Counted from the stretch's first letter, positions 302 through 40,100 are shown. The stretch is DNA of 64,000 nucleotides from an uncultured Alphaproteobacteria bacterium (GCA_963747735.1 CAVVGE010000009.1:6257-70256); one strand, 5' to 3'. Numbers and translations: made by a program. The notes: generated from the sequence alone by a model not told the origin.

Positions 302-432
302 ATGATAAGCATCAAGGGCTATGTGGTCCGCCCGGCGAACACCGCGAGGCTCCGGGCGGTGCTGGTCATCCACGAGAACCGCGGGCTAACCCCTACATCG
401 AGGATGTTGCGCGGCGGCTGGCGGCGGCGGTC
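302..432 (+). pseudogene. dienelactone-hydrolase-family gene remnant (short and frameshifted)
   Basis: IKGYVVRPANTARLRAVLVIHENRGL in one frame continues as NPYIEDVARRLAAA in the next frame. Only about 40 codons of the family remain. Confidence 0.4.
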
Positions 433-745
433 CGTTGCACGCCGTCGAAATCGCTCGCGAACTGGGAATTCCGACCGTGCTGGCCTGCTAGGCGGCGACC
501 CCGGCGCGATCAACGAGATTGCCGTCAGCCAGGACGGCACCGTCACGTCTCCCGCGCATCTCTCGAAGGGCGAAGATTACGTTCTGACCCCTGGGGATTG
601 GATCGCCGTCAAGACGCCGGGCGGCGGCGGTTACGGGCCCGCGGCGGAGCGTGACCCCGCGATGGTGCAACGCGACATTGCCCGCGGCTATTATACTGCC
701 GACGAAGCTGTCAGCCTGTTCACCCGTCCCGCCGCCGCGGAATAA
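433..745 (+). pseudogene. hydantoinase/oxoprolinase-family remnants (a HyuA-like piece, then a HyuB-like C-terminus)
   Basis: AVEIARELGIPTVL is followed by a stop. Then ...WIAVKTPGGGGYGPAAERDPAMVQRDIARGYYTADEAVSLF runs to TAA at 743-745. That is a typical hydantoinase B/oxoprolinase C-terminal end, but the upstream several hundred codons are missing. Confidence 0.45.
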
Positions 746-776
746 CCCCTTTTGGCCGAGAGCTGGATACGCGCGG

Positions 777-2474
777 ATGATCGAGGTTCCCGTTCTGATT
801 GTCGGCGGCGGCCCGGTTGGGCTCACCGCCTCGATCCTGCTGTCGCAGCAGGGGATCCGCTCGCTGCTGGTCGAGCGCCACCCTGGCACGGCGATCGTGC
901 CAAAAGCGCGCGGCATCAATGCGCGGACGATGGAGATGTATCGCCAGATCGGCATGGAGCAGGCGATCCGCGATGCCGGCCTCGCCCCGGAAGGCACCGG
1001 CCTGATTGTGTGGACCGAAAGCCTCGCCGGCCGCGAGATCGAACGCCGAGTGCCGGGCCGGCTGAACCCGGCCAATCGCGATGTCTCGCCGGTGCTGAAC
1101 TGCCTCTGCGCCCAGGACGATCTGGAACCGGTATTGCGCCGCTTTGCCGAAGCGCAAGCCACGGCCGAGCTGCGCTTCAACACCGAGGTGACCGCGGTTG
1201 ACCAGGACGCGGGCGGCGTCAGCGCGACCCTCACCGATCGGCTGCGTGGCGGCGAGACGACGGTGCGGGCGCAATACCTGATCGGCGCCGACGGGGCGCA
1301 GAGCATCGTCAGGCGCAGCGTTGCGCGCGAGATGATCGGTCGCGAAGGCGTCTACGACAGCGTCAATATCGCGTTCCGGGCAGATCTGCGGCCATGGACG
1401 CAGGGCCGACCGGCGGCCCTCTATTTTGTCGAGCAACCCGATCTGCGCGCGACCTTTCTGACGATCAACGCGCATGACCGCTGGGGCTTCCTGATCCACA
1501 GCCTGAAGCAGTATGGCTACACCGCCTCAGACTTCACTGAAGCGCGTTGCGTCGCATTGATCCGGCAGGGTGTCGGCAAAGCCGACCTGCCGGTCGAAAT
1601 CCGCGGTCTCAGCGTCTGGGAAGCCGCTGCCATCGTCGCCGACCGTTACCGCAACGGGCGGCTTTTCCTGGCCGGGGATGCGGCGCACGAGATGCCGCCG
1701 ACCGGCGGCTTCGGCCTCAACACCGGCGTGCAGGACGTGCACAACCTAGCGTGGAAGCTCGCCGCCGTGTTGCAGGGCCGGGCGGGCGAGGCGTTGCTCG
1801 ACACATACGAGGCGGAGCGGCTGCCTGTCGCCACGATCACGACGAAGGCGAGCCTGGAAAACAGCCTGTCGATGGGCCGCACGGCGCGGCAAGACGGCGC
1901 CAAGCTGCCGCGCTCCGAATTCCTCAACGAGCAGGGGCTGATCTTCGGCCAATCGTATCAGTCGACCGCCATCGTCCCCGACGGCACGCCGCCGCCGGCG
2001 GTCAGCGACCCGGTGACGCAGTACCTGCCGTCGGCGCGGCCGGGCAGCCGGGCGCCGCACGTGCGGCTCGAACGCCGCGGCGAGCGCCTGTCGACCATCG
2101 ACCTGTTCGGCGGCCGGTTCGTCCTGCTGACCGGGGCGCAAGGCGCTGGCTGGATCGACGCCGCGGCGCGGCTCGTGTCGAAAGCGCGACCGGCGCTGGT
2201 TGCGCACATGGTGGGCGGCGGCGGGGAACTCGCCGACCCCGAAGGGGCATGGCCGACCCTCTACGCCGTTGCGCCCGAGGGTGCGGTGCTTGTCCGCCCC
2301 GACGGGTATGTCGGCTGGCGCAGCCGGGCTGGTATCGACATCCCCGCTCGCGCGCTGTCGCAGGTGCTCGACAGCATCCTCGGTCTTCCCGTTCGCGGAG
2401 AACCCCAAGCGCTTCGCCGAGTACCTGCTGCCGATCCTGGCCGAGCTGAATGGCTGACCCGCGATCAATGCTGA
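777..2474 (+). CDS. FAD-dependent aromatic-ring monooxygenase/hydroxylase
   Basis: The internal ATG gives MIEVPVLIVGGGPVGLTASILLSQQGIRSLLVERH (a Rossmann GxGxxG motif). The later GDAAHEMPPTGGFGLNTGVQDVHNLAWKL motif is typical of this family. The long ORF 651-2474 was trimmed to this start. Confidence 0.85.
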   Translation: MIEVPVLIVGGGPVGLTASILLSQQGIRSLLVERHPGTAIVPKARGINARTMEMYRQIGMEQAIRDAGLAPEGTGLIVWTESLAGREIERRVPGRLNPANRDVSPVLNCLCAQDDLEPVLRRFAEAQATAELRFNTEVTAVDQDAGGVSATLTDRLRGGETTVRAQYLIGADGAQSIVRRSVAREMIGREGVYDSVNIAFRADLRPWTQGRPAALYFVEQPDLRATFLTINAHDRWGFLIHSLKQYGYTASDFTEARCVALIRQGVGKADLPVEIRGLSVWEAAAIVADRYRNGRLFLAGDAAHEMPPTGGFGLNTGVQDVHNLAWKLAAVLQGRAGEALLDTYEAERLPVATITTKASLENSLSMGRTARQDGAKLPRSEFLNEQGLIFGQSYQSTAIVPDGTPPPAVSDPVTQYLPSARPGSRAPHVRLERRGERLSTIDLFGGRFVLLTGAQGAGWIDAAARLVSKARPALVAHMVGGGGELADPEGAWPTLYAVAPEGAVLVRPDGYVGWRSRAGIDIPARALSQVLDSILGLPVRGEPQALRRVPAADPGRAEWLTRDQC

Positions 2475-36188: not shown

Positions 36189-37140
36189 TTATGCCTTTGC
36201 TTCCGGTGAAATCAACATTTGGTAGGTGAGGGGTGCGTGGCCGGCGGCGATGCCGAGCAGCGAGCGGAAGGCGGCATGTCGGGTGCGGCGCCGGTTGAAG
36301 CGGAAGACGAACTCGTCAAGGTAGGATTGGAGCTGCTTGCGGCGCAGGCCGTGATAGACGCCCAAGGCCCAGACTTTGAGGTTGGAGAAGATGCGGTGCA
36401 CCCAGGGCAGCACGACATGGGCAGCGATCTTGCCGACGACATGGGGATCGTGGCTGACGCCGGGAGCACCGGGGTAGGCGGCCCACCCGTCGGTCTTGGC
36501 GGTAGCGCCGGGGGCGAGATTGCGGGCGATGAAGGGGTGCAGGCTGTCGGCCGAATAGTCGGCCACCTCGGCGAGACGGATGCGGCCGGGTCCGGCCCCG
36601 CCGTCCTGCACCTCGACGGCGCCGACGATCAGCATTTTCCCTTGATAGCCGCGTCCGCCGCCGCCGGTGAGCGGGTCATGCTTGCTGCGGCAGGCGATCT
36701 CGGTCTCGTCGATCTCGACCAGACCGGCGAGCGGGCTGCGGCCGGGGGCCAGCATGCTGGCGCGCAGCTTGGCGCACAGCAGCCAAGCGCTCTTGTAGGA
36801 GCCGAGCGCGAGCTGGCGTTGCAGCTGCAGCGCCGAAATCCCGTTGGAATGGGTCGCCATCAGATAGGCCGCCCAGAGCCAAGTGGTCAGCGCCAGCTTG
36901 GAGTGATGCATGATGGTGCCGGCGGTGACCGAGGTCTGCTTGCCGCAGCCGGCGCATTCCCAGAACCTGCCCTCGCGAAGGCGGGGGTCCACGGCTTGGT
37001 TTGCAGTTGCCACGCCTTGGTCTTGCCGCAGCCGGGGCAGACAAAGCCCTCGGGCCAGCGCGCCGCGAACAGGTATCCGACGCAGGCCGCCTCATCCGCG
37101 AAGCGCTGCTGAAACTCGATCAAGGAGCGGGGAGACGCCG
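36189..37140 (-). mobile_element. IS1595-family transposase gene (interrupted, 5' end truncated)
   Basis: N-terminal Zn-ribbon region SLIEFQQRFADEAACVGYLFAARWPEGFVCPGCGKTKAWQLQTKPW, then a frame change, then WECAGCGKQTSVTAGTIMHHSKLALTTWLWAAYLMATHSNGISALQLQRQL and a DDE-type C-terminus ...YLDEFVFRFNRR. Confidence 0.8.
36964..36986 (+). repeat. 23-nt stem-loop insertion, copy 1 (AACCTGCCCTCGCGAAGGCGGGG), inside the IS1595 transposase
   Basis: Stem CCCTCGC / GCGGGGG with a GAAG loop. Deleting 23 nt joins ...QTKPWT to WECAGCGKQ in frame (the frames of ORFs 36887-37366 and 36189-37013 differ by 2 mod 3). Confidence 0.7.
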
Positions 37141-37145
37141 CGCGA

Positions 37146-37484
37146 GCTCGACAACTACGCCACCCACAAACATCCCAAGAGCCTGCCCTCGCGAAGGCGG
37201 GGGTGCGGGCCTGGCTGGATAAGCACTCCCGCTTCACCATGCACTTCACGCCGACCTCCTCGTCCTGGCTCAATCTGGTCGAGCGCTTCTTCGCCGATCT
37301 GACCGCCGATGTGATCCGCGCCGGCAGCTTCGCCTCGGTCAACAACCTGGTGCGCGACATCAACACCTATCTCGCCGAGCGCAACGCCGATCCAAAGCCC
37401 TACCGCTGGCGGGCACAGGGCGCCGACATCCTCGCCAAAATCAAACGCGCCCGCGCCACCCTCGAAAATCTCTCCGCCGCATGA
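37146..37484 (+). mobile_element. IS630-family transposase, C-terminal fragment (interrupted)
   Basis: LDNYATHKHPK, then the insertion, then VRAWLDKHSRFTMHFTPTSSSWLNLVERFFADLT...NADPKPYRWRA. The upstream two thirds of the transposase are absent. It abuts the IS1595 5' end. Confidence 0.75.
37180..37202 (+). repeat. 23-nt stem-loop insertion, copy 2 (AGCCTGCCCTCGCGAAGGCGGGG), inside the IS630 fragment
   Basis: Identical to copy 1 at 22 of 23 positions. Removal joins HKHPK to VRAWLDKH in frame. Confidence 0.7.
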
Positions 37485-38031
37485 GTTATTGGTCGGCAAT
37501 TGAGATTCAGGACACTAGTTGGATCATCGATCGGTATGCGCCGATGTTCGCGGGTCCGTCTTCTTCCCCGGACTGATCGGAGGCAAGTCGCTGGAGTGAC
37601 GAGTTCTCCAAGGCCGTGGGGACGACGCGCGGCTTGCGAACTCCTGCTGGCACGGGATCAGTCGGGGCCGTCATTCGCCGGAAAGGCCGAAACTTTGCTT
37701 CGTTTTACGATTACCGCCTCGGAGGCGGTGCTGACCTAGCGGGCGGACCAGGCAGGCGGCGCGTGGGTTTGGCACGAGCTGCGCAACGACGACACCGTTA
37801 CCCCCAGCCGGGTCTTCACCTTCGAGCGCGGGGACTTGATCGTGGAACCCGATCACACCGACCTGGAGATCGACCTTGAAACCTTTGAGTATCAGTTCCG
37901 CTTCGCCACCCGCCGCGGTGGTTACTTCCACATCGAGGGCCGGGTTTTCGATATTGAGAACCAGGTACTCAGCGCGGACGTGGGGCTGGATCTGGAGCGC
38001 AAGGTCTTCGTGGCTCATCAGCGCCGGACGG

Positions 38032-38412
38032 ACAGAACTTGTGGGCCTGCCGTTCGGCGCCTGCCGCTTCGTCACCCCGCCGAAGGCGCTGGTCGCGGCC
38101 GGCAAGGCTGACTACCTGACCATGACCATCGATCGGCAGGGGGTGGCTGTCCGTGTGACCGCGGTCGAACGCACCGTCGTCGATGTCCTGCACCGGTCGG
38201 ATATCGCAGGCGGCACCGAGGAAGTCCTCAAATCGCTGGACCTGGTCCGCTATCTCGATCCGGCGAAGGTCGGCGACTATGTCGAGCTTCTGGACAACCG
38301 GTCGATCGCCTCCGTTTCCGGCTGGTGGCTCGAAGAGCGGCGCAGCGCGCTCGGCGTCACCGATGACGTCCTGGCACGCCTGCGAGCGCGGCTCCCACGC
38401 TCGAAAAGGTAT
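38032..38412 (+). pseudogene. AbiEi-like (type IV TA antitoxin) C-terminal fragment
   Basis: GVAVRVTAVERTVVDVLHRSDIAGGTEEVLKSLDLVRYLDPAKVGDYVELLDNRSIASVSGWWLEERRSALGV resembles AbiEi antitoxins. It is truncated at both ends. An unrelated E/F/D-rich coding remnant (DLEIDLETFEYQFRFATRRGGYFHIEGRVFDIENQ) lies just upstream in another frame. Confidence 0.4.
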
Positions 38413-38495
38413 CGGCACCAAAGAACGAGAAGGGAAAGCACGGGCATGCTGTCAAGCGCCAGCACGGCTTCTTTGCCGGCGGTGCCCGCATCGCT

Positions 38496-38933
38496 GTGTT
38501 GCCGGCTGCGAGGGGTGCCGAACTCGGCGCCTTTCTCAAAGCGAATGTCGCGGCCCATTCGCATCTGCTGACCGACGCGTTTGCCGGCTATAGCGGCCGC
38601 GACGCCGATCTCGGCGAGCATTTGAAGCACACGCCGGTGGTCCAGGGCGAGGGCGCCAACGCCGGCGAATTTTTCCCGATCATCCATACCTTGTTCAGCA
38701 ACATCAAAGCCTGGCTCGGCGGCACTCATCACGGCGTCAGCGCCAGGCACTTGCCGCGATACCTGCGAGAATGGTCCTACCGCTTCAATCGCCGTAACCT
38801 CGCCGACGGCCTGGACGGCTATCTGATCCGGCGCGCGGTCGAATGCGCCACCATCACCTACGACCAGCTCACCGCCGGCGCCATGCCGGGCGGCGCCGAT
38901 CGCATCCGCCGTCTTCCCGTGCCAGTTGCATAG
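38496..38933 (+). mobile_element. second IS1595-family transposase, C-terminal half only
   Basis: LLTDAFAGYSG...HTLFSNIKAWLGGTHHGVSARHLPRYLREWSYRFNRRN is the DDE C-terminal region. There is no N-terminal half. Confidence 0.7.
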
Positions 38934-39136
38934 CCTGCTTTAGCTGGATAGGGATATCGACCGATTGACCTCGATAGAGCTGGCGCCGATCGTTTGAACA
39001 CGCGCGCGGCTTCGATAGGTGATCGCTGCCTTGGTTGAAGTCGAGTTGTCCACGGCGCCGGACGGTCGTCGCATGACGACGAACGGCCGGCCGGCGCGGT
39101 GGACAACTCGGTTGCACGGCGCGTCGTGCAAGCATC

Positions 39137-40100
39137 TTACGCGGCCTTCGCCGGGATCGGCAAAGCCGAAGCGTAGGCTTGGTCGGGCGTCCGCCCGCCG
39201 TGGGCGGAGTGGGGTCGGTGGGTGTTGTAGAAGTCCAGATAGCGCCCGAGGCTGACGCGGGCCTGGCCGACGCTCTCGTAGTAAGCCCGCAGGTAGACCT
39301 CCTCGTACTTCACGCTTTTCCACAGCCGCTCGACAAAGATGTTGTCGCGCCAGCAGCCGCGGCCGTCCATGCTGATCTTGATGCGCTCGGCCCGCAGCCG
39401 CTCGGTGAAGTCCAGGCTGGTGAACTGGCTGCCCCCAGCCTTCGCTGGGGCAGGCTCTGGTCGGTGTTGAAGATCTCCGGCCGGCCGTGGCGGGCCAGCG
39501 CCGCCTCGATCGCGCGGATGCAGAAGTCGGCCTCCAGGGTGATCGACAACTCCCAGGCCAGCACCTTGCGGCTGGCCCAGTCAATCACCGCGGCCAGGTA
39601 GACGAAGCCGCGGGCCATGGGACTGTAGGTGATGTCCATGGCCCAGACCTGGCCCGGCCGATCGATCTTCAGCCCGCGCAGCAGGTCGGGATAGATCGGG
39701 TGGCTGGGGTGCTTCTTGCTGGTGTTCGGCCGCCGGTAGATCGCCTCGATCCCGATCCGCTTCATCAGCGTGGCCACGTGCTTGCGCCCGACCATGAAGC
39801 CCAGCGGCTTCAGCAGGCCGCTGAGCATGCGTGCGCCGGCGAACGGATACTCCAGGTGCAGCTCGTCGATCACCCGCATCAGCCGCAGGTCCGCCTCGCC
39901 GACCGGCCGCGGCAGGTAGTAGACACTGCCCCGACTGATCCCCAGAAGCTGCGCCTGCCGCTTGATCGACAGTTCGTGGTCGCGCCGGATCGTCGCCTTG
40001 CGCTCGGGCCGGCTGTCTTGCCGAGCGCGCCCTCTAAAAAATCGATCTCCAGCGCCTTGCGCCCGGGCCGGCTCTCCCACGGATCAGCCTCAGTTATTTC
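39137..40100 (-). mobile_element. IS3-family element remnant (orfA truncated to its last 20 codons or so; orfB interrupted)
   Basis: KALEIDFLEGALGK (the orfA end), then orfB LSIKRQAQLLGISRGSVYY...VWAMDITYSPMARGFVYLAAVIDWASRKVLAWEL...PEIFNTDQ, then the insertion, then GSQFTSLDFTERLRAERIKISMDGRGCWRDNIFVERLWKSVKYEEVYL. Confidence 0.8.
39434..39456 (-). repeat. 23-nt stem-loop insertion, copy 3 (AGCCTGCCCCAGCGAAGGCTGGG on the minus strand), inside IS3 orfB
   Basis: Stem CCCCAGC / GCTGGGG with a GAAG loop. It splits the conserved DQ|GSQF motif. Removal restores DQGSQFTS and the frame (ORFs 39310-40080 and 39137-39370). Confidence 0.75.

Follow-up and report, generated by a model that had tools for sequence, protein, structure and literature searches.

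Within a 64,000-nt stretch of DNA from an uncultured Alphaproteobacteria bacterium (hereafter the window), three unrelated transposase genes each contain a copy of the same 23-nt stem-loop. A preliminary description took this sequence to target transposase genes, which raises the questions of what the 23-mer is and whether transposases are in fact its target.

Three interrupted transposase genes

The three 23-mers lie where they were first described, in one antisense and two sense orientations (Table 1), and share the consensus AGCCTGCCC(Y)NGCGAAGGCNGGG. These 3 matches at no more than 3 mismatches compare with 0.00 expected from 100 dinucleotide shuffles of the window. In-silico removal of the copies restores all three frames, as had been proposed, giving ORFs that are continuous across the junctions (marked here by a slash) of IS1595 (...QTKPWT/WECAGCGKQ...), IS630 (...HKHPK/VRAWLDKH...) and IS3 (...FNTDQ/GSQFTS..., which regenerates the DQGSQF motif). 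Pfam domains align without a break over each repaired junction: Zn_ribbon_IS1595 and DDE_Tnp_IS1595 in the first, DDE_3 in the second, and HTH_21, rve and rve_3 in the third.

Table 1. Copies of the 23-nt element, their host genes and a relic in the window
Feature	Position	Strand	Remarks
Copy 1 (AACCTGCCCTCGCGAAGGCGGGG)	36964..36986	+	Antisense to host IS1595 transposase gene; flanks cccag (upstream) and gtcc (downstream)
Copy 2 (AGCCTGCCCTCGCGAAGGCGGGG)	37180..37202	+	Sense in IS630 (DDE_3) C-terminal fragment; flanks ccaag (upstream) and gtgc (downstream)
Copy 3 (AGCCTGCCCCAGCGAAGGCTGGG on minus strand)	39434..39456	-	Sense in IS3 orfB; splits DQ/GSQF motif
Host 1, IS1595-family transposase pseudogene	36189..37135	-	Frameshift from copy 1
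Host 2, 5'-truncated IS630-family transposase fragment	37142..37484	+	Frameshift from copy 2
Host 3, IS3-family orfB pseudogene	39137..40080	-	Frameshift from copy 3
Probable decayed relic, AGCCT.CGCGAAGGCGG	10327..10342	-	Intergenic; stem not intact

Intact references lack the 23 nt, contrary to the possibility, allowed for at the outset, that the sequence is a normal in-frame part of these IS families. In DNA alignments with conserved flanks, the copy 3 site corresponds to a clean 23-nt gap in the intact IS3 copies of L119 and L120 (L036 also has empty IS3 sites), and the copy 2 site to a clean 23-nt gap in the insert-free IS630 genes of L080 and L098. Target-site duplication is absent at both gaps, where there is only a 1-nt ambiguity. 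The insertion of copy 1 was checked by protein and Pfam alone because its nearest relative is too divergent. The element inserts as an exact 23-nt unit without target-site duplication. In the window, the three copies do no more than identify an old IS graveyard, in which insertions of this kind pile up.

Each copy has an unpaired head, AGCCTG, followed by a 7-bp G+C stem, CCC(C/T)N..NGGG(g), and a short loop, which is GAAG here; the seventh stem pair is formed with a flanking G. The two compensatory differences reported among the window copies are real, with C-G becoming A-T at pair 11:20 and T.G becoming C-G at pair 10:21. Both free stem pairs covary, with an observed score reached by 0 of 500 shuffles, and T.G wobbles are nearly all of the type that keeps the top strand paired (about 22 versus about 2). 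This covariation shows that the hairpin is under selection, as was originally argued.

The previously noted 14-nt partial match at 10329-10342 on the minus strand is unlikely to arise by chance, with 0.03 matches expected per window. Since the stem at 10327..10342 is not intact, this sequence is probably what is left of a decayed copy, and a 5-nt slip deletion between the two CCT repeats with additional loss of the 3' GG would leave such a remnant.

Copies in other genomes, phages and plasmids

A scan of one genome per species, the counts of which are lower bounds, found the element at no fewer than 118 genome loci in at least 10 phyla, representing at least about 110 non-redundant copies. It is also found on 21 viral contigs and in 130 plasmid records. 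These many further copies dispose of the idea that the three in the window might be the only ones. Each replicon has few copies (6-7 per ~850 kb). Among the matches listed, and outside the search pattern itself, the AG of the head is found in 74-87% of copies and the +1 G in 89%.

Most of the listed copies are intergenic or within other repeats, with no coding flank in 63 of 116 cases and one in a further 34. Loops of other repeats, CGTC-1/NTS hairpins among them, often hold copies, as do copies of the element itself; loops of pre-existing hairpins hold 11 of 110 listed copies versus 1.9 expected, and L003 has a copy that sits within another, in its GAAG^G loop. Filled and empty versions of a site are found in several contexts. 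An IS1380-like element, unrelated to IS1595, is filled in L062, L087 and L106 and empty in L038, and L021 has the insert at an IS3 site that lacks it in L036. Likewise, CGTC-1 REP loops filled in L005 and L125 have empty copies elsewhere, and a BoxC-like repeat that has the insert in L101 lacks it in L017 (1 mismatch in 36 nt). Insertion into unrelated DNA has occurred repeatedly and independently. Three close pairs (<300 nt apart) are present among the matches listed, all in direct orientation. A chimeric composite is found at L006@4686, and tandem arrays of 23+22 or 46 nt also occur.

The 23-mer might be a passenger that no longer moves by itself, or never did, and is spread by hitch-hiking on IS elements, REPs, phages and plasmids together with gene conversion. 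One and the same IS, with the same insert, is found in different Dehalococcoidia species, and composite NTS-plus-hairpin units recur; together with the viral and plasmid copies, these are what such a passenger would produce, and IS elements, phages and plasmids with copies do carry the element between lineages. However, the independent sites in about 11 IS families and many unrelated intergenic contexts, the empty paralogous sites and the nested copy in L003 mean that de novo insertion is needed at some point, and we consider purely passive spread improbable.

The preliminary description also considered an excision or repair footprint, in which the 23-mer would be the joined ends left after a larger element was excised or collapsed. 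The stem arms are indeed inverted repeats, like joined terminal repeats. This idea is weakened by the absence of target duplication, the constant sequence including its asymmetric head, the identical length at more than 100 sites and the nesting of the element in its own loop, and a larger element bounded by AGCCTGCCCC... and ...GGGG was not found in any locus examined. We regard this origin as barely credible.

Target site and the fate of copies in genes

The preferred insertion site is (C)AG^G. An xAG flank is present in 46-47% of both standard copies and independent sister copies versus 5% of background, CAG is the top flanking triplet, the upstream logo reads C/A-A-G, and in each of the 13 intragenic insertions that were verified, position -2 is A and position +1 is G. 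The CAGG target is the reverse complement of CCTG in the unpaired head, and from the consensus it appears that head and target could pair. Copies with CTTG heads have an upstream A in 5 of 5 cases, an alternative reading of which is a 7-nt head, and this confounds them as a test of pairing.

AG and G flank donor copies too, so that replication or repair template switching primed by these microhomologies, with no dedicated transposase, would yield the same apparent target. The chimeric and tandem copies would then reflect recombination or slippage at the hairpin, and an enzyme gene was not found near copies in a loose motif screen of the loci. Against this, 2 nt plus 1 nt of microhomology is too little to locate a donor elsewhere in the genome, and boundaries are exact in more than 100 copies. 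The head is also strictly conserved across phyla and is common to sister elements that have different loops and hairpins, which points to sequence-specific recognition. Enzyme-free templated insertion is thus an unlikely source of the copies.

Among the matches listed, frameshifting copies are found only in transposase genes, in about 11 families (IS1595, IS630, IS3, IS30, IS5, IS21, IS66, IS256, IS1380-like, ISKra4-like and IS91). The ordinary genes with inserts, encoding LeuRS, an amidohydrolase (Amidohydro_2) and a phage prohead protease, contain only in-frame derivatives of 24 or 45 nt. This pattern indicates insertion at the DNA level followed by purifying selection, and not IS targeting, an intron or a footprint. 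Copies last only where they are harmless: in intergenic DNA, in the loops of other repeats, in dead or dispensable IS copies and in prophages.

The same distribution bears on the suggestion that the cell itself writes the hairpin into transposase genes in order to disable IS elements. The confinement of frameshifts to unrelated transposases would be explained, as would the presence of 2-4 hairpins in some IS genes (L042, L031), the position of all three window copies and the sense bias of IS-embedded copies (13 sense versus 2 antisense, with the AGG motif equally available on both strands; 22:8 overall). Such a device is nevertheless very unlikely in view of the intergenic and repeat-embedded majority, the in-frame copies in LeuRS, the amidohydrolase and phage structural genes, and a target that is merely (C)AG^G and has no IS-specific feature. 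The ratio of IS-embedded to intergenic copies among the matches listed, about 16:90, is roughly what neutral survival at harmless sites predicts, and this weakens the idea further. IS copies with the element still spread (L062, L087 and L106), and the loose motif screen of the loci did not find a linked gene. The element does not target transposase genes.

A mini-intron or translational-bypass cassette, from which interrupted transposases would still be made, could be argued from the exact restoration of frame on deletion, the stable top-strand hairpin with its U.G-type wobbles and the sense bias. Mixed orientation was cited early on as evidence against an RNA intron, and this holds, with antisense copies in the window (copy 1), in L021 and, three times, in L031. 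In addition, essential or ordinary genes among the matches listed never carry the 23-nt form, most copies are intergenic, matched take-off and landing codons are absent and the element has no match to an Rfam family. An RNA-level function is accordingly extremely improbable.

A candidate mobile hairpin and its relatives

We think it probable that the 23-mer is mobile DNA of a miniature, non-autonomous type and that it belongs to an AGCCTG-tagged family of REP-like hairpins, and among the three candidates originally put forward a REP/RAYT-like ultra-small palindromic mobile element fits best. This family of very small mobile hairpins was previously uncatalogued, is found in many bacterial phyla and is not aimed at transposases. 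The element would move as single-stranded DNA, with the AGCCTG (top) strand as the substrate, and the catalyst would be an ssDNA enzyme acting in trans and specific for hairpin and tag, similar to IS200/IS605 TnpA or RAYT (HUH-Y1), or alternatively an Ssn-like GIY-YIG nuclease together with host functions. CCTG in the head would pair with the CAGG target, and the +1 G of the target would close the stem.

In a loose motif screen of low power, which covered more than 140 loci (8-kb blocks) and the window, no ORF resembling GIY-YIG or HUH enzymes turned up near copies, and no recurring neighbour gene was found beside the copies. Several points count against the proposal. A single-hairpin substrate of 23 nt is smaller than any HUH transposon demonstrated to our knowledge, and we know of no strand transfer by GIY-YIG nucleases. 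The element also differs from classical REPs in its low copy number per replicon, and host-confined REP/enzyme pairs are not usually near-identical in different phyla. Variants 21, 22 or 24 nt long also exist and count against a mobile element of this kind.

The initial statement that no such element had been described is too strong, since REP superfamilies with an unpaired tag and hairpin (GTAG, CGTC/NTS) and intragenic in-frame REPs are known (PMC3733652, PMC11893778). The AGCCTG tag and family are absent from both papers. CGTC-1 is the same as Neisseria dRS3/NTS and Rickettsia RPE-6, and SsnA is a GIY-YIG ssDNA nuclease (Di Nocera et al. 2013, PMC3733652; Chenal et al. 2025, PMC11893778) that binds NTS/CGTC-1 hairpins and cuts them strand-specifically as ssDNA (PMC11893778). 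The REP superfamilies (CGTC/NTS-Ssn and GTAG/RAYT) are the closest known elements, and the motifs that define them are lacking here.

Like CGTC-tagged REPs, the element has a short G+C hairpin, with a loop of 4 nt, behind an unpaired 5' tag, is strand-oriented, is present in Alphaproteobacteria and distant phyla, and makes intragenic in-frame inserts, which include those in tRNA synthetases of sphingomonads. The two have an identical centre (CCC.GCGAAGGC.GGG, in frame ...PAKAG...), the same stem-loop is also found with a CGTC tag, and a transposase is known for neither. In contrast, the tag here is AGCCTG and not CGTC(A/T), a CGTC-type tag (CGTC/TGTC/CCTC) being near the head in 4 of 113 copies, and none of the 113 matches the SRM motif HGTCWYN(0-2)YYVSBRHN(0-5)WNVSBRGN(0-2)RNCYNB on either strand. 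All 7 bp of the stem are G+C, versus stems of 8-9 bp that start with A-T pairs and enclose a 4-5 nt loop, and there is no CCA-like 3' tail. The copies are singletons at low copy number, unlike head-to-head dimers. CGTC-tagged REPs are tied to ssnA (cd10448 GIY-YIG), often as repeat-gene-repeat; a loose regex found no GIY-YIG-like ORF in the window or 8-kb blocks. For the element, though not for CGTC/NTS, coding DNA has been shown to take up clean insertions, and their boundaries and target are defined.

GTAG REPs and REPINs (RAYT, HUH-Y1) are also non-autonomous tagged hairpin repeats of 20-40 nt with stem covariation and presumed ssDNA movement. They differ in their GT[AG]G tag (GTAG is found within -6..+2 in 4 of 113 copies), in their dimeric REPIN organisation, in being species-specific where the element is conserved across phyla, and in their RAYT, which the loose motif screen did not find near copies. 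IS200/IS605 elements recognize a short target through DNA-DNA pairing and integrate on its 3' side, leaving no duplication. Together with their miniature derivatives (PATEs), they resemble the element in strand-specific, hairpin-dependent insertion directly 3' of a short specific sequence, and nucleotides just 5' of the hairpin foot could similarly read the target (CCTG:CAGG). IS200/IS605 and PATEs have two different subterminal hairpins and a length of at least ~100 nt, unlike this single 23-nt hairpin, for which no TnpA or other Y1 gene was identified in the loci screened.

A tentative and rather doubtful extension is that AGCCTG-tagged hairpins form a third REP-like superfamily beside GTAG and CGTC, with an ssDNA enzyme of their own and with target choice through 4-bp pairing of the head (CCTG) with the target. 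If true, this would be the smallest bacterial mobile DNA (23 nt, a single hairpin) with exact boundaries, target (CAG^G) and non-duplication defined. In a bolder version, the sense bias of 13:2 would reflect insertion coupled to transcription or to the non-template strand, and expressed mobile-element genes would consequently be hit and silenced preferentially.

Other small mobile repeats offer more distant parallels. Elhai et al. (2008, Genome Res) reportedly described SDR1-8 of Nostoc and other cyanobacteria, mobile repeats of 21-27 nt with a hairpin whose conservation is shown by compensatory changes. These too are often nested in their own copies or in other repeats and have no known enzyme, but they differ in sequence and are reported from cyanobacteria only, and neither IS-gene frameshifts nor a defined target is known as an SDR hallmark. 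Rickettsia palindromic elements and the GC clusters and byps of yeast mitochondria, all of them small mobile inserts of a G+C or palindromic kind, can enter protein-coding genes. RPE-1 is 100-150 bp and in frame. Both the GC clusters and the byps belong to mitochondria; ribosomes bypass the byps, and nothing points to bypass of the element. The AG-type target of GC clusters resembles the AG^G of the 23-mer.

Interrupted transposase genes and IS graveyards

The 23-nt element, an unpaired AGCCTG head followed by a hairpin, has exactly three matches to AGCCTGCCCYNGCGAAGGCNGGG in the window at three or fewer mismatches, compared with 0.00 in shuffled sequence. When the 23-mer was removed in silico and translations with and without it were compared, the two frames fused into a single transposase ORF for all three copies, with the junctions (slash) ...CGKTKAWQLQTKPWT/WECAGCGKQTSVTAGTIMH... 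in IS1595 (copy 1), ...DNYATHKHPK/VRAWLDKHSRF... in IS630 (copy 2), and ...PEIFNTDQ/GSQFTSLDF... in IS3 OrfB (copy 3). Pfam alignments ran unbroken over the junction in each repaired protein (Zn_ribbon_IS1595 and DDE_Tnp_IS1595 in the first, DDE_3 in the second, and HTH_21, rve, and rve_3 in the third), and intact 276-aa relatives of the restored IS3 OrfB number in the thousands, with end-to-end coverage and identity up to 85%. The preliminary description had proposed aligning the interrupted IS to intact ISfinder references, and at the DNA level copy 3 appears as one clean 23-nt gap against two intact IS3 relatives (AACACCGACCA[23 nt]GGGCAGCCAGTTCACC), as does copy 2 against two IS630 relatives. 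The sole IS1595 relative compared with copy 1 was too divergent for a DNA alignment to reveal the gap, and a search of the plasmid collection for near-identical insert-free IS copies returned only ~72% relatives. Target-site duplication is absent, and the insertion boundary is ambiguous by a single G. Its fold is a 7-bp stem capped by a GAAG loop, the last pair of the element being formed with a flanking G, and both differences between copies 1 and 2 and copy 3 are compensatory. Every detail of the preliminary description of these copies that we checked (matches, frames, fold, and compensatory changes) was right.

The IS pieces around the three copies form a mosaic (see table). The long inverted repeat within it gave just a spurious sub-threshold miRNA hit in Rfam; it could represent the terminal structure of an IS or a further small palindromic element.

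A scan of the same loci for AGCCTG directly followed by a hairpin found ~40 sister elements, which share the head and the CCC(C/T)...GGGG stem but have different loops (GAAA, GCAG, GAAT, CTCGA, CCCGA, CCCCGA, and more) and a likewise AG-rich upstream flank. Some Dehalococcoidia loci are crowded with them (6-8 per 8 kb), and the Dehalococcoidia locus L031 resembles the window in being a "graveyard" of IS pieces.

Element copies, their host genes, and associated features, with coordinates in the window or in the locus named (L-numbers, mostly from the genome scan)
Feature	Locus	Coordinates	Strand	Remarks
Element copy 1	Window	36964-36986	+	Match to AGCCTGCCCYNGCGAAGGCNGGG; frameshifting, IS1595
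Element copy 2	Window	37180-37202	+	Match to AGCCTGCCCYNGCGAAGGCNGGG; frameshifting, IS630
Element copy 3	Window	39434-39456	-	Match to AGCCTGCCCYNGCGAAGGCNGGG; frameshifting, IS3
IS mosaic	Window	36.2-40.1 kb		At least four truncated IS pieces
ORF fragment (LVGLPFGACRFVTPPKALVAAGKADYLTMTIDRQG...)	Window	37836-38400	+	Amid IS pieces; no Pfam match
Separate second IS1595-family fragment	Window	38496-38933	+	DDE_Tnp_IS1595 C-terminal half; between IS630 fragment and IS3 copy
Long inverted repeat (gttgtccacggcgcc...ggcgcggtggacaac)	Window	39038-39113		Directly downstream of IS3 orfB stop
Probable decayed element copy	Window	10327-10342	-	Intergenic, just upstream of LuxR-type gene start
IS630-type gene and adjoining IS remnant	L031 (Dehalococcoidia MAG)	400-2200		Eight AGCCTG-tagged hairpins, at least five loop types, in 1.8 kb; frameshifting, IS630 (four hairpins)
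Frameshifting, IS3	L098, L021			
Frameshifting, IS30-like	L085			
Frameshifting, IS630	L080			
Frameshifting, IS5/IS1182	L042			Two copies within a single gene
Frameshifting, IS21	L075			
Frameshifting, IS66	L046			
Frameshifting, IS256	L092			
Frameshifting, IS1380-like family	L055, L062/L087/L106			
Frameshifting, ISKra4-like family	L016			22-nt class
Frameshifting, IS91	Mesorhizobium plasmid			
In-frame, leucyl-tRNA synthetase	Sphingopyxis			24 nt = EPALAKAG
In-frame, Amidohydro_2 gene	L092	3193-3237 (offsets)	reverse	Tandem 23+22 = 45 nt, SLPSRRRGPALAKAG
In-frame, prohead protease				EPAPAKAG
In-frame, IS66 transposase				KPAPAKAG
BoxC-like repeat (CCCTCTCCC...GGGAGAGGGTTAG^GGTGAGGG)	L006	4650-4740		Recurrent Chloroflexota insertion site
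BoxC-like repeat	L017	5519		Same site
BoxC-like repeat	L060, L101, others			Same site
Tandem array	L077 (Hyphomonadaceae contig end)	3920-4124		Five exact 46-nt repeats; hairpin without AG head (cttgCCTGCCCCGGCGAAGGCCGGGgatcgcggcgacttcccgcga)
Inverted copy pair	L135	11638-12950		Flanks RHS/YD-repeat C-terminal toxin tip (..DPTLGRYTQPDPLGF..) and ankyrin-repeat gene

Distribution of the element and fate of its insertions

With each bacterial or archaeal species represented by a single genome, a scan for the pattern CCTGCCCNNGCGAAGGCNNGG returned at least 118 loci, and among the matches listed the sequence family has been active or transferred in at least 10 phyla. Hosts include Alphaproteobacteria (Sphingomonadales, Hyphomicrobiales, Acetobacteraceae, Stellaceae, and others), Beta-, Gamma-, and Zetaproteobacteria, Dehalococcoidia/Chloroflexota, Cyanobacteria, Planctomycetota, Bdellovibrionales, Desulfobacterota, Acidobacteriota, and Rhodothermales. 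The element is also found in 21 viral or prophage contigs and in 130 plasmid or chromid records, with few copies per replicon; Sphingomonas parapaucimobilis has 6-7 copies per ~850 kb. A chance origin was rejected since zero matches are expected, as was an assembly artefact, since the element occurs in isolates and across several sequencing platforms and its stem covaries. All-vs-all clustering of the ORFs of the 118 loci for a recurrent neighbor recovered one shared IS and otherwise just generic families (ABC ATPases, SDRs).

Coding phase was assigned to 116 of the matches listed from GC3 periodicity together with manual and Pfam checks; an earlier heuristic based on stop-free ORF spans was dropped because it was noisy in high-GC DNA and mis-scored ties. 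No coding flank was found for 63 copies, one for 34, and two for 19. Two classes can be distinguished among the copies that are bona fide intragenic. Frameshifting copies are exact 23-nt units, plus one 22-nt case, and their hosts are all transposase genes, while in-frame derivatives reside in genes that must work. Orthologs of the Sphingopyxis leucyl-tRNA synthetase are shorter by 6-7 residues exactly at the insert, and the tandem pair in the Amidohydro_2 gene looks like a slipped 22-nt duplication that rescued a frameshifting insertion. This split fits insertion at the DNA level followed by purifying selection, and copies are selectively retained. Removal at the RNA level could also be proposed for an insert whose deletion restores a reading frame, but if the element were taken out of the RNA, any gene could harbor it in its 23-nt form, which disfavors this explanation.

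The preliminary description had raised the targeting of transposases, and a defense against IS elements was among the explanations considered for the frameshifting copies. Among the matches listed, copies embedded in IS and copies in intergenic DNA stand at ~16:90. Bacterial genomes contain IS and intergenic DNA in proportions whose range includes this value, so that active targeting of transposases need not be assumed. Targeting was not borne out; dead IS copies are places where the element can persist, and anti-IS defense accounts for the whole pattern less well than a mobile hairpin of the ssDNA type.

Target sequence, stem pairing, and strand

Among the matches listed, AG, the start of the head, lies directly 5' of the matched pattern (74% and 87% at its two positions) and G directly 3' (89%), though the search pattern specifies neither. 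An A at -2 and a G at +1 were present in all 13 insertions for which a reading frame allowed verification. For 98 standard copies among the matches listed, an xAG flank was found in 46% versus a background of 5%, with CAG as the top triplet (18% versus 1.9%), and an independent set of 30 sister elements gave the same flank result. The CCTG of the unpaired head and the target CAG^G are reverse complements, and the +1 G pairs with C7, closing the stem. Position -2 is A or G in 86% of copies, either of which can pair with head T5, and CTTG-headed variants have an upstream A in 5/5 cases, as pairing predicts, though a 7-nt-head reading fits equally. Insertion at (C)AG^G is precise, adding 23 nt and duplicating nothing.

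Among the matches listed, stem positions left free by the pattern are complementary in the great majority of cases. Covariation was judged at the two free pairs only, the other five being fixed by the search pattern; distinct sequence types show C-G, U-A, G-C, A-U, and U.G at pair 11:20 and C-G, U.G, and U-A at pair 10:21, and 0/500 shuffles reached the observed covariation score. The AGCCTG (top) strand is the better-folding strand and alone keeps the stem paired, with ~22 T.G wobbles among the matches listed that preserve its pairing versus ~2 otherwise. Orientation is likewise biased, with 13 sense and 2 antisense copies in IS genes (p ~0.003-0.007), in which AGG is similarly frequent on both strands (228 vs 256), and 22:8 relative to any coding flank. 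We could not account for this sense bias by selection; it suggests a single-stranded intermediate or target.

Mobility and relation to known REP systems

An Rfam search with the element gave nothing but spurious sub-threshold hits, and full-text literature searches with its 12-, 16-, and 10-mers found no bacterial description, a match in the Caulobacter DciA literature being rejected as a coincidental primer match. The nearest conceptual precedent is the cyanobacterial SDR elements of Elhai, which are reportedly 21-27 nt, nested, hairpin-forming, and enzyme-less. Di Nocera et al. distinguish two REP superfamilies, GTAG- and CGTC-tagged, the latter with an unpaired tag, an 8-9-bp stem opening with A-T pairs, a 4-5-nt loop, and a CCA tail; most of these CGTC repeats are paired head to head as dimers, and they are richest in Alphaproteobacteria, apparently without a dedicated transposase, and also occur in frame within genes, tRNA synthetases included (e.g., VIPAKAGI) (PMC3733652). 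One of them, CGTC-1, is the NTS (CGTCATTCCCGCGMAVGCGGGAATCYRG) of Chenal et al., which is bound and cut as ssDNA by SsnA, a GIY-YIG protein of ~100 aa encoded by a gene that the repeats often flank; only one strand is recognized, RNA and dsDNA are uncut, and NTS/Ssn mobility is a hypothesis only (PMC11893778). The 23-mer shares this architecture and the same GCGAAGGC centre and is often located in NTS loops. However, it has neither tag, its 7-bp stem is all G+C, it has no tail and forms no dimers, and among the matches listed 0/113 copies fit the published Ssn-related motif (SRM). The AGCCTG head is absent from both papers (PMC3733652, PMC11893778). Five viral contigs (L150, L151, L183, L195, and L220) carry the identical stem-loop CCCCNGC-GAAG-GCNGGGG with a CGTC-like tag and a CCAG tail, so that two repeat families share a hairpin module and only the tags differ. 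A loose, low-power motif screen of all ORFs found no GIY-YIG or HUH gene near copies, and a REPtron-like gene between viral-contig copies 1.3-1.7 kb apart was rejected, the genes between being ordinary phage, RHS, and porin genes.

Empty sites matching filled ones could be reconstructed for an IS1380-like element (filled in L062/L087/L106, empty in L038), for an IS3 (filled in L021, empty in L036), for the site of window copy 3 (empty in L036, L119, and L120), for loops of CGTC-1 REPs (filled in L005 and L125, empty elsewhere), and for a BoxC-like repeat (filled in L101, empty in L017, 1 mismatch in 36 nt). An excision footprint, in which the 23 nt would be the scar of a departed element, accounts for the whole pattern less well than a mobile hairpin. 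Two repeat families were struck recurrently, the position within either family being constant (...CCCGCGAAG^GCGGGAA... and ...GGGAGAGGGTTAG^GGTGAGGG...). Insertion has occurred repeatedly in independent events. The same insert in one IS of three Dehalococcoidia species indicates that IS elements also serve as vehicles, but pure hitch-hiking again fits the whole pattern less well. Among the matches listed, 11/110 non-redundant copies occupy the loop of a hairpin that was already there (stem of at least 6 bp), where 1.9 are expected, and in L003 one copy is nested in the GAAG^G loop of another. Enzyme-free template switching, by which the hairpin would be copied into place, is likewise the poorer account of the pattern as a whole.

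The element is a tiny REP-like mobile hairpin that is not aimed at transposases. The top strand would transpose as ssDNA, the head CCTG would pair with the target CAGG, and a trans-acting enzyme specific for tag and hairpin, either HUH-Y1-like or Ssn-like with host functions, would act on it. The spread of REP-like hairpins has puzzled researchers for decades, and this element makes REP mobility testable. The insertions in IS genes define the moving unit and target unusually precisely: a conserved transposase ORF serves as a reporter provided by nature, which fixes the unit to the nucleotide, at 23 nt. The element provides concrete biochemical substrates, among them the ssDNA oligo AGCCTGCCCCNGCGAAGGCNGGGG with a CAGG target, and a well-defined motif whose association with HUH or GIY-YIG genes can be examined genome-wide. 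Three consequences deserve attention in genome annotation and comparative work: 23-nt inserts produce "frameshifted" IS pseudogenes, 8-aa "(E)PAPAKAG" inserts arise in real proteins, and the element creates recombination hot spots.

At L006@4686 the 5' flank of the BoxC-like repeat is joined via the hairpin to the 3' flank of an NTS-like REP, a chimera that indicates recombination at the element. The L077 array was rejected as a CRISPR array because its "spacers" are identical; it is simply a 46-nt unit repeated in tandem, in other words a minisatellite that has the element at its core. The inverted copies in L135 may mark or promote toxin-cassette exchange.
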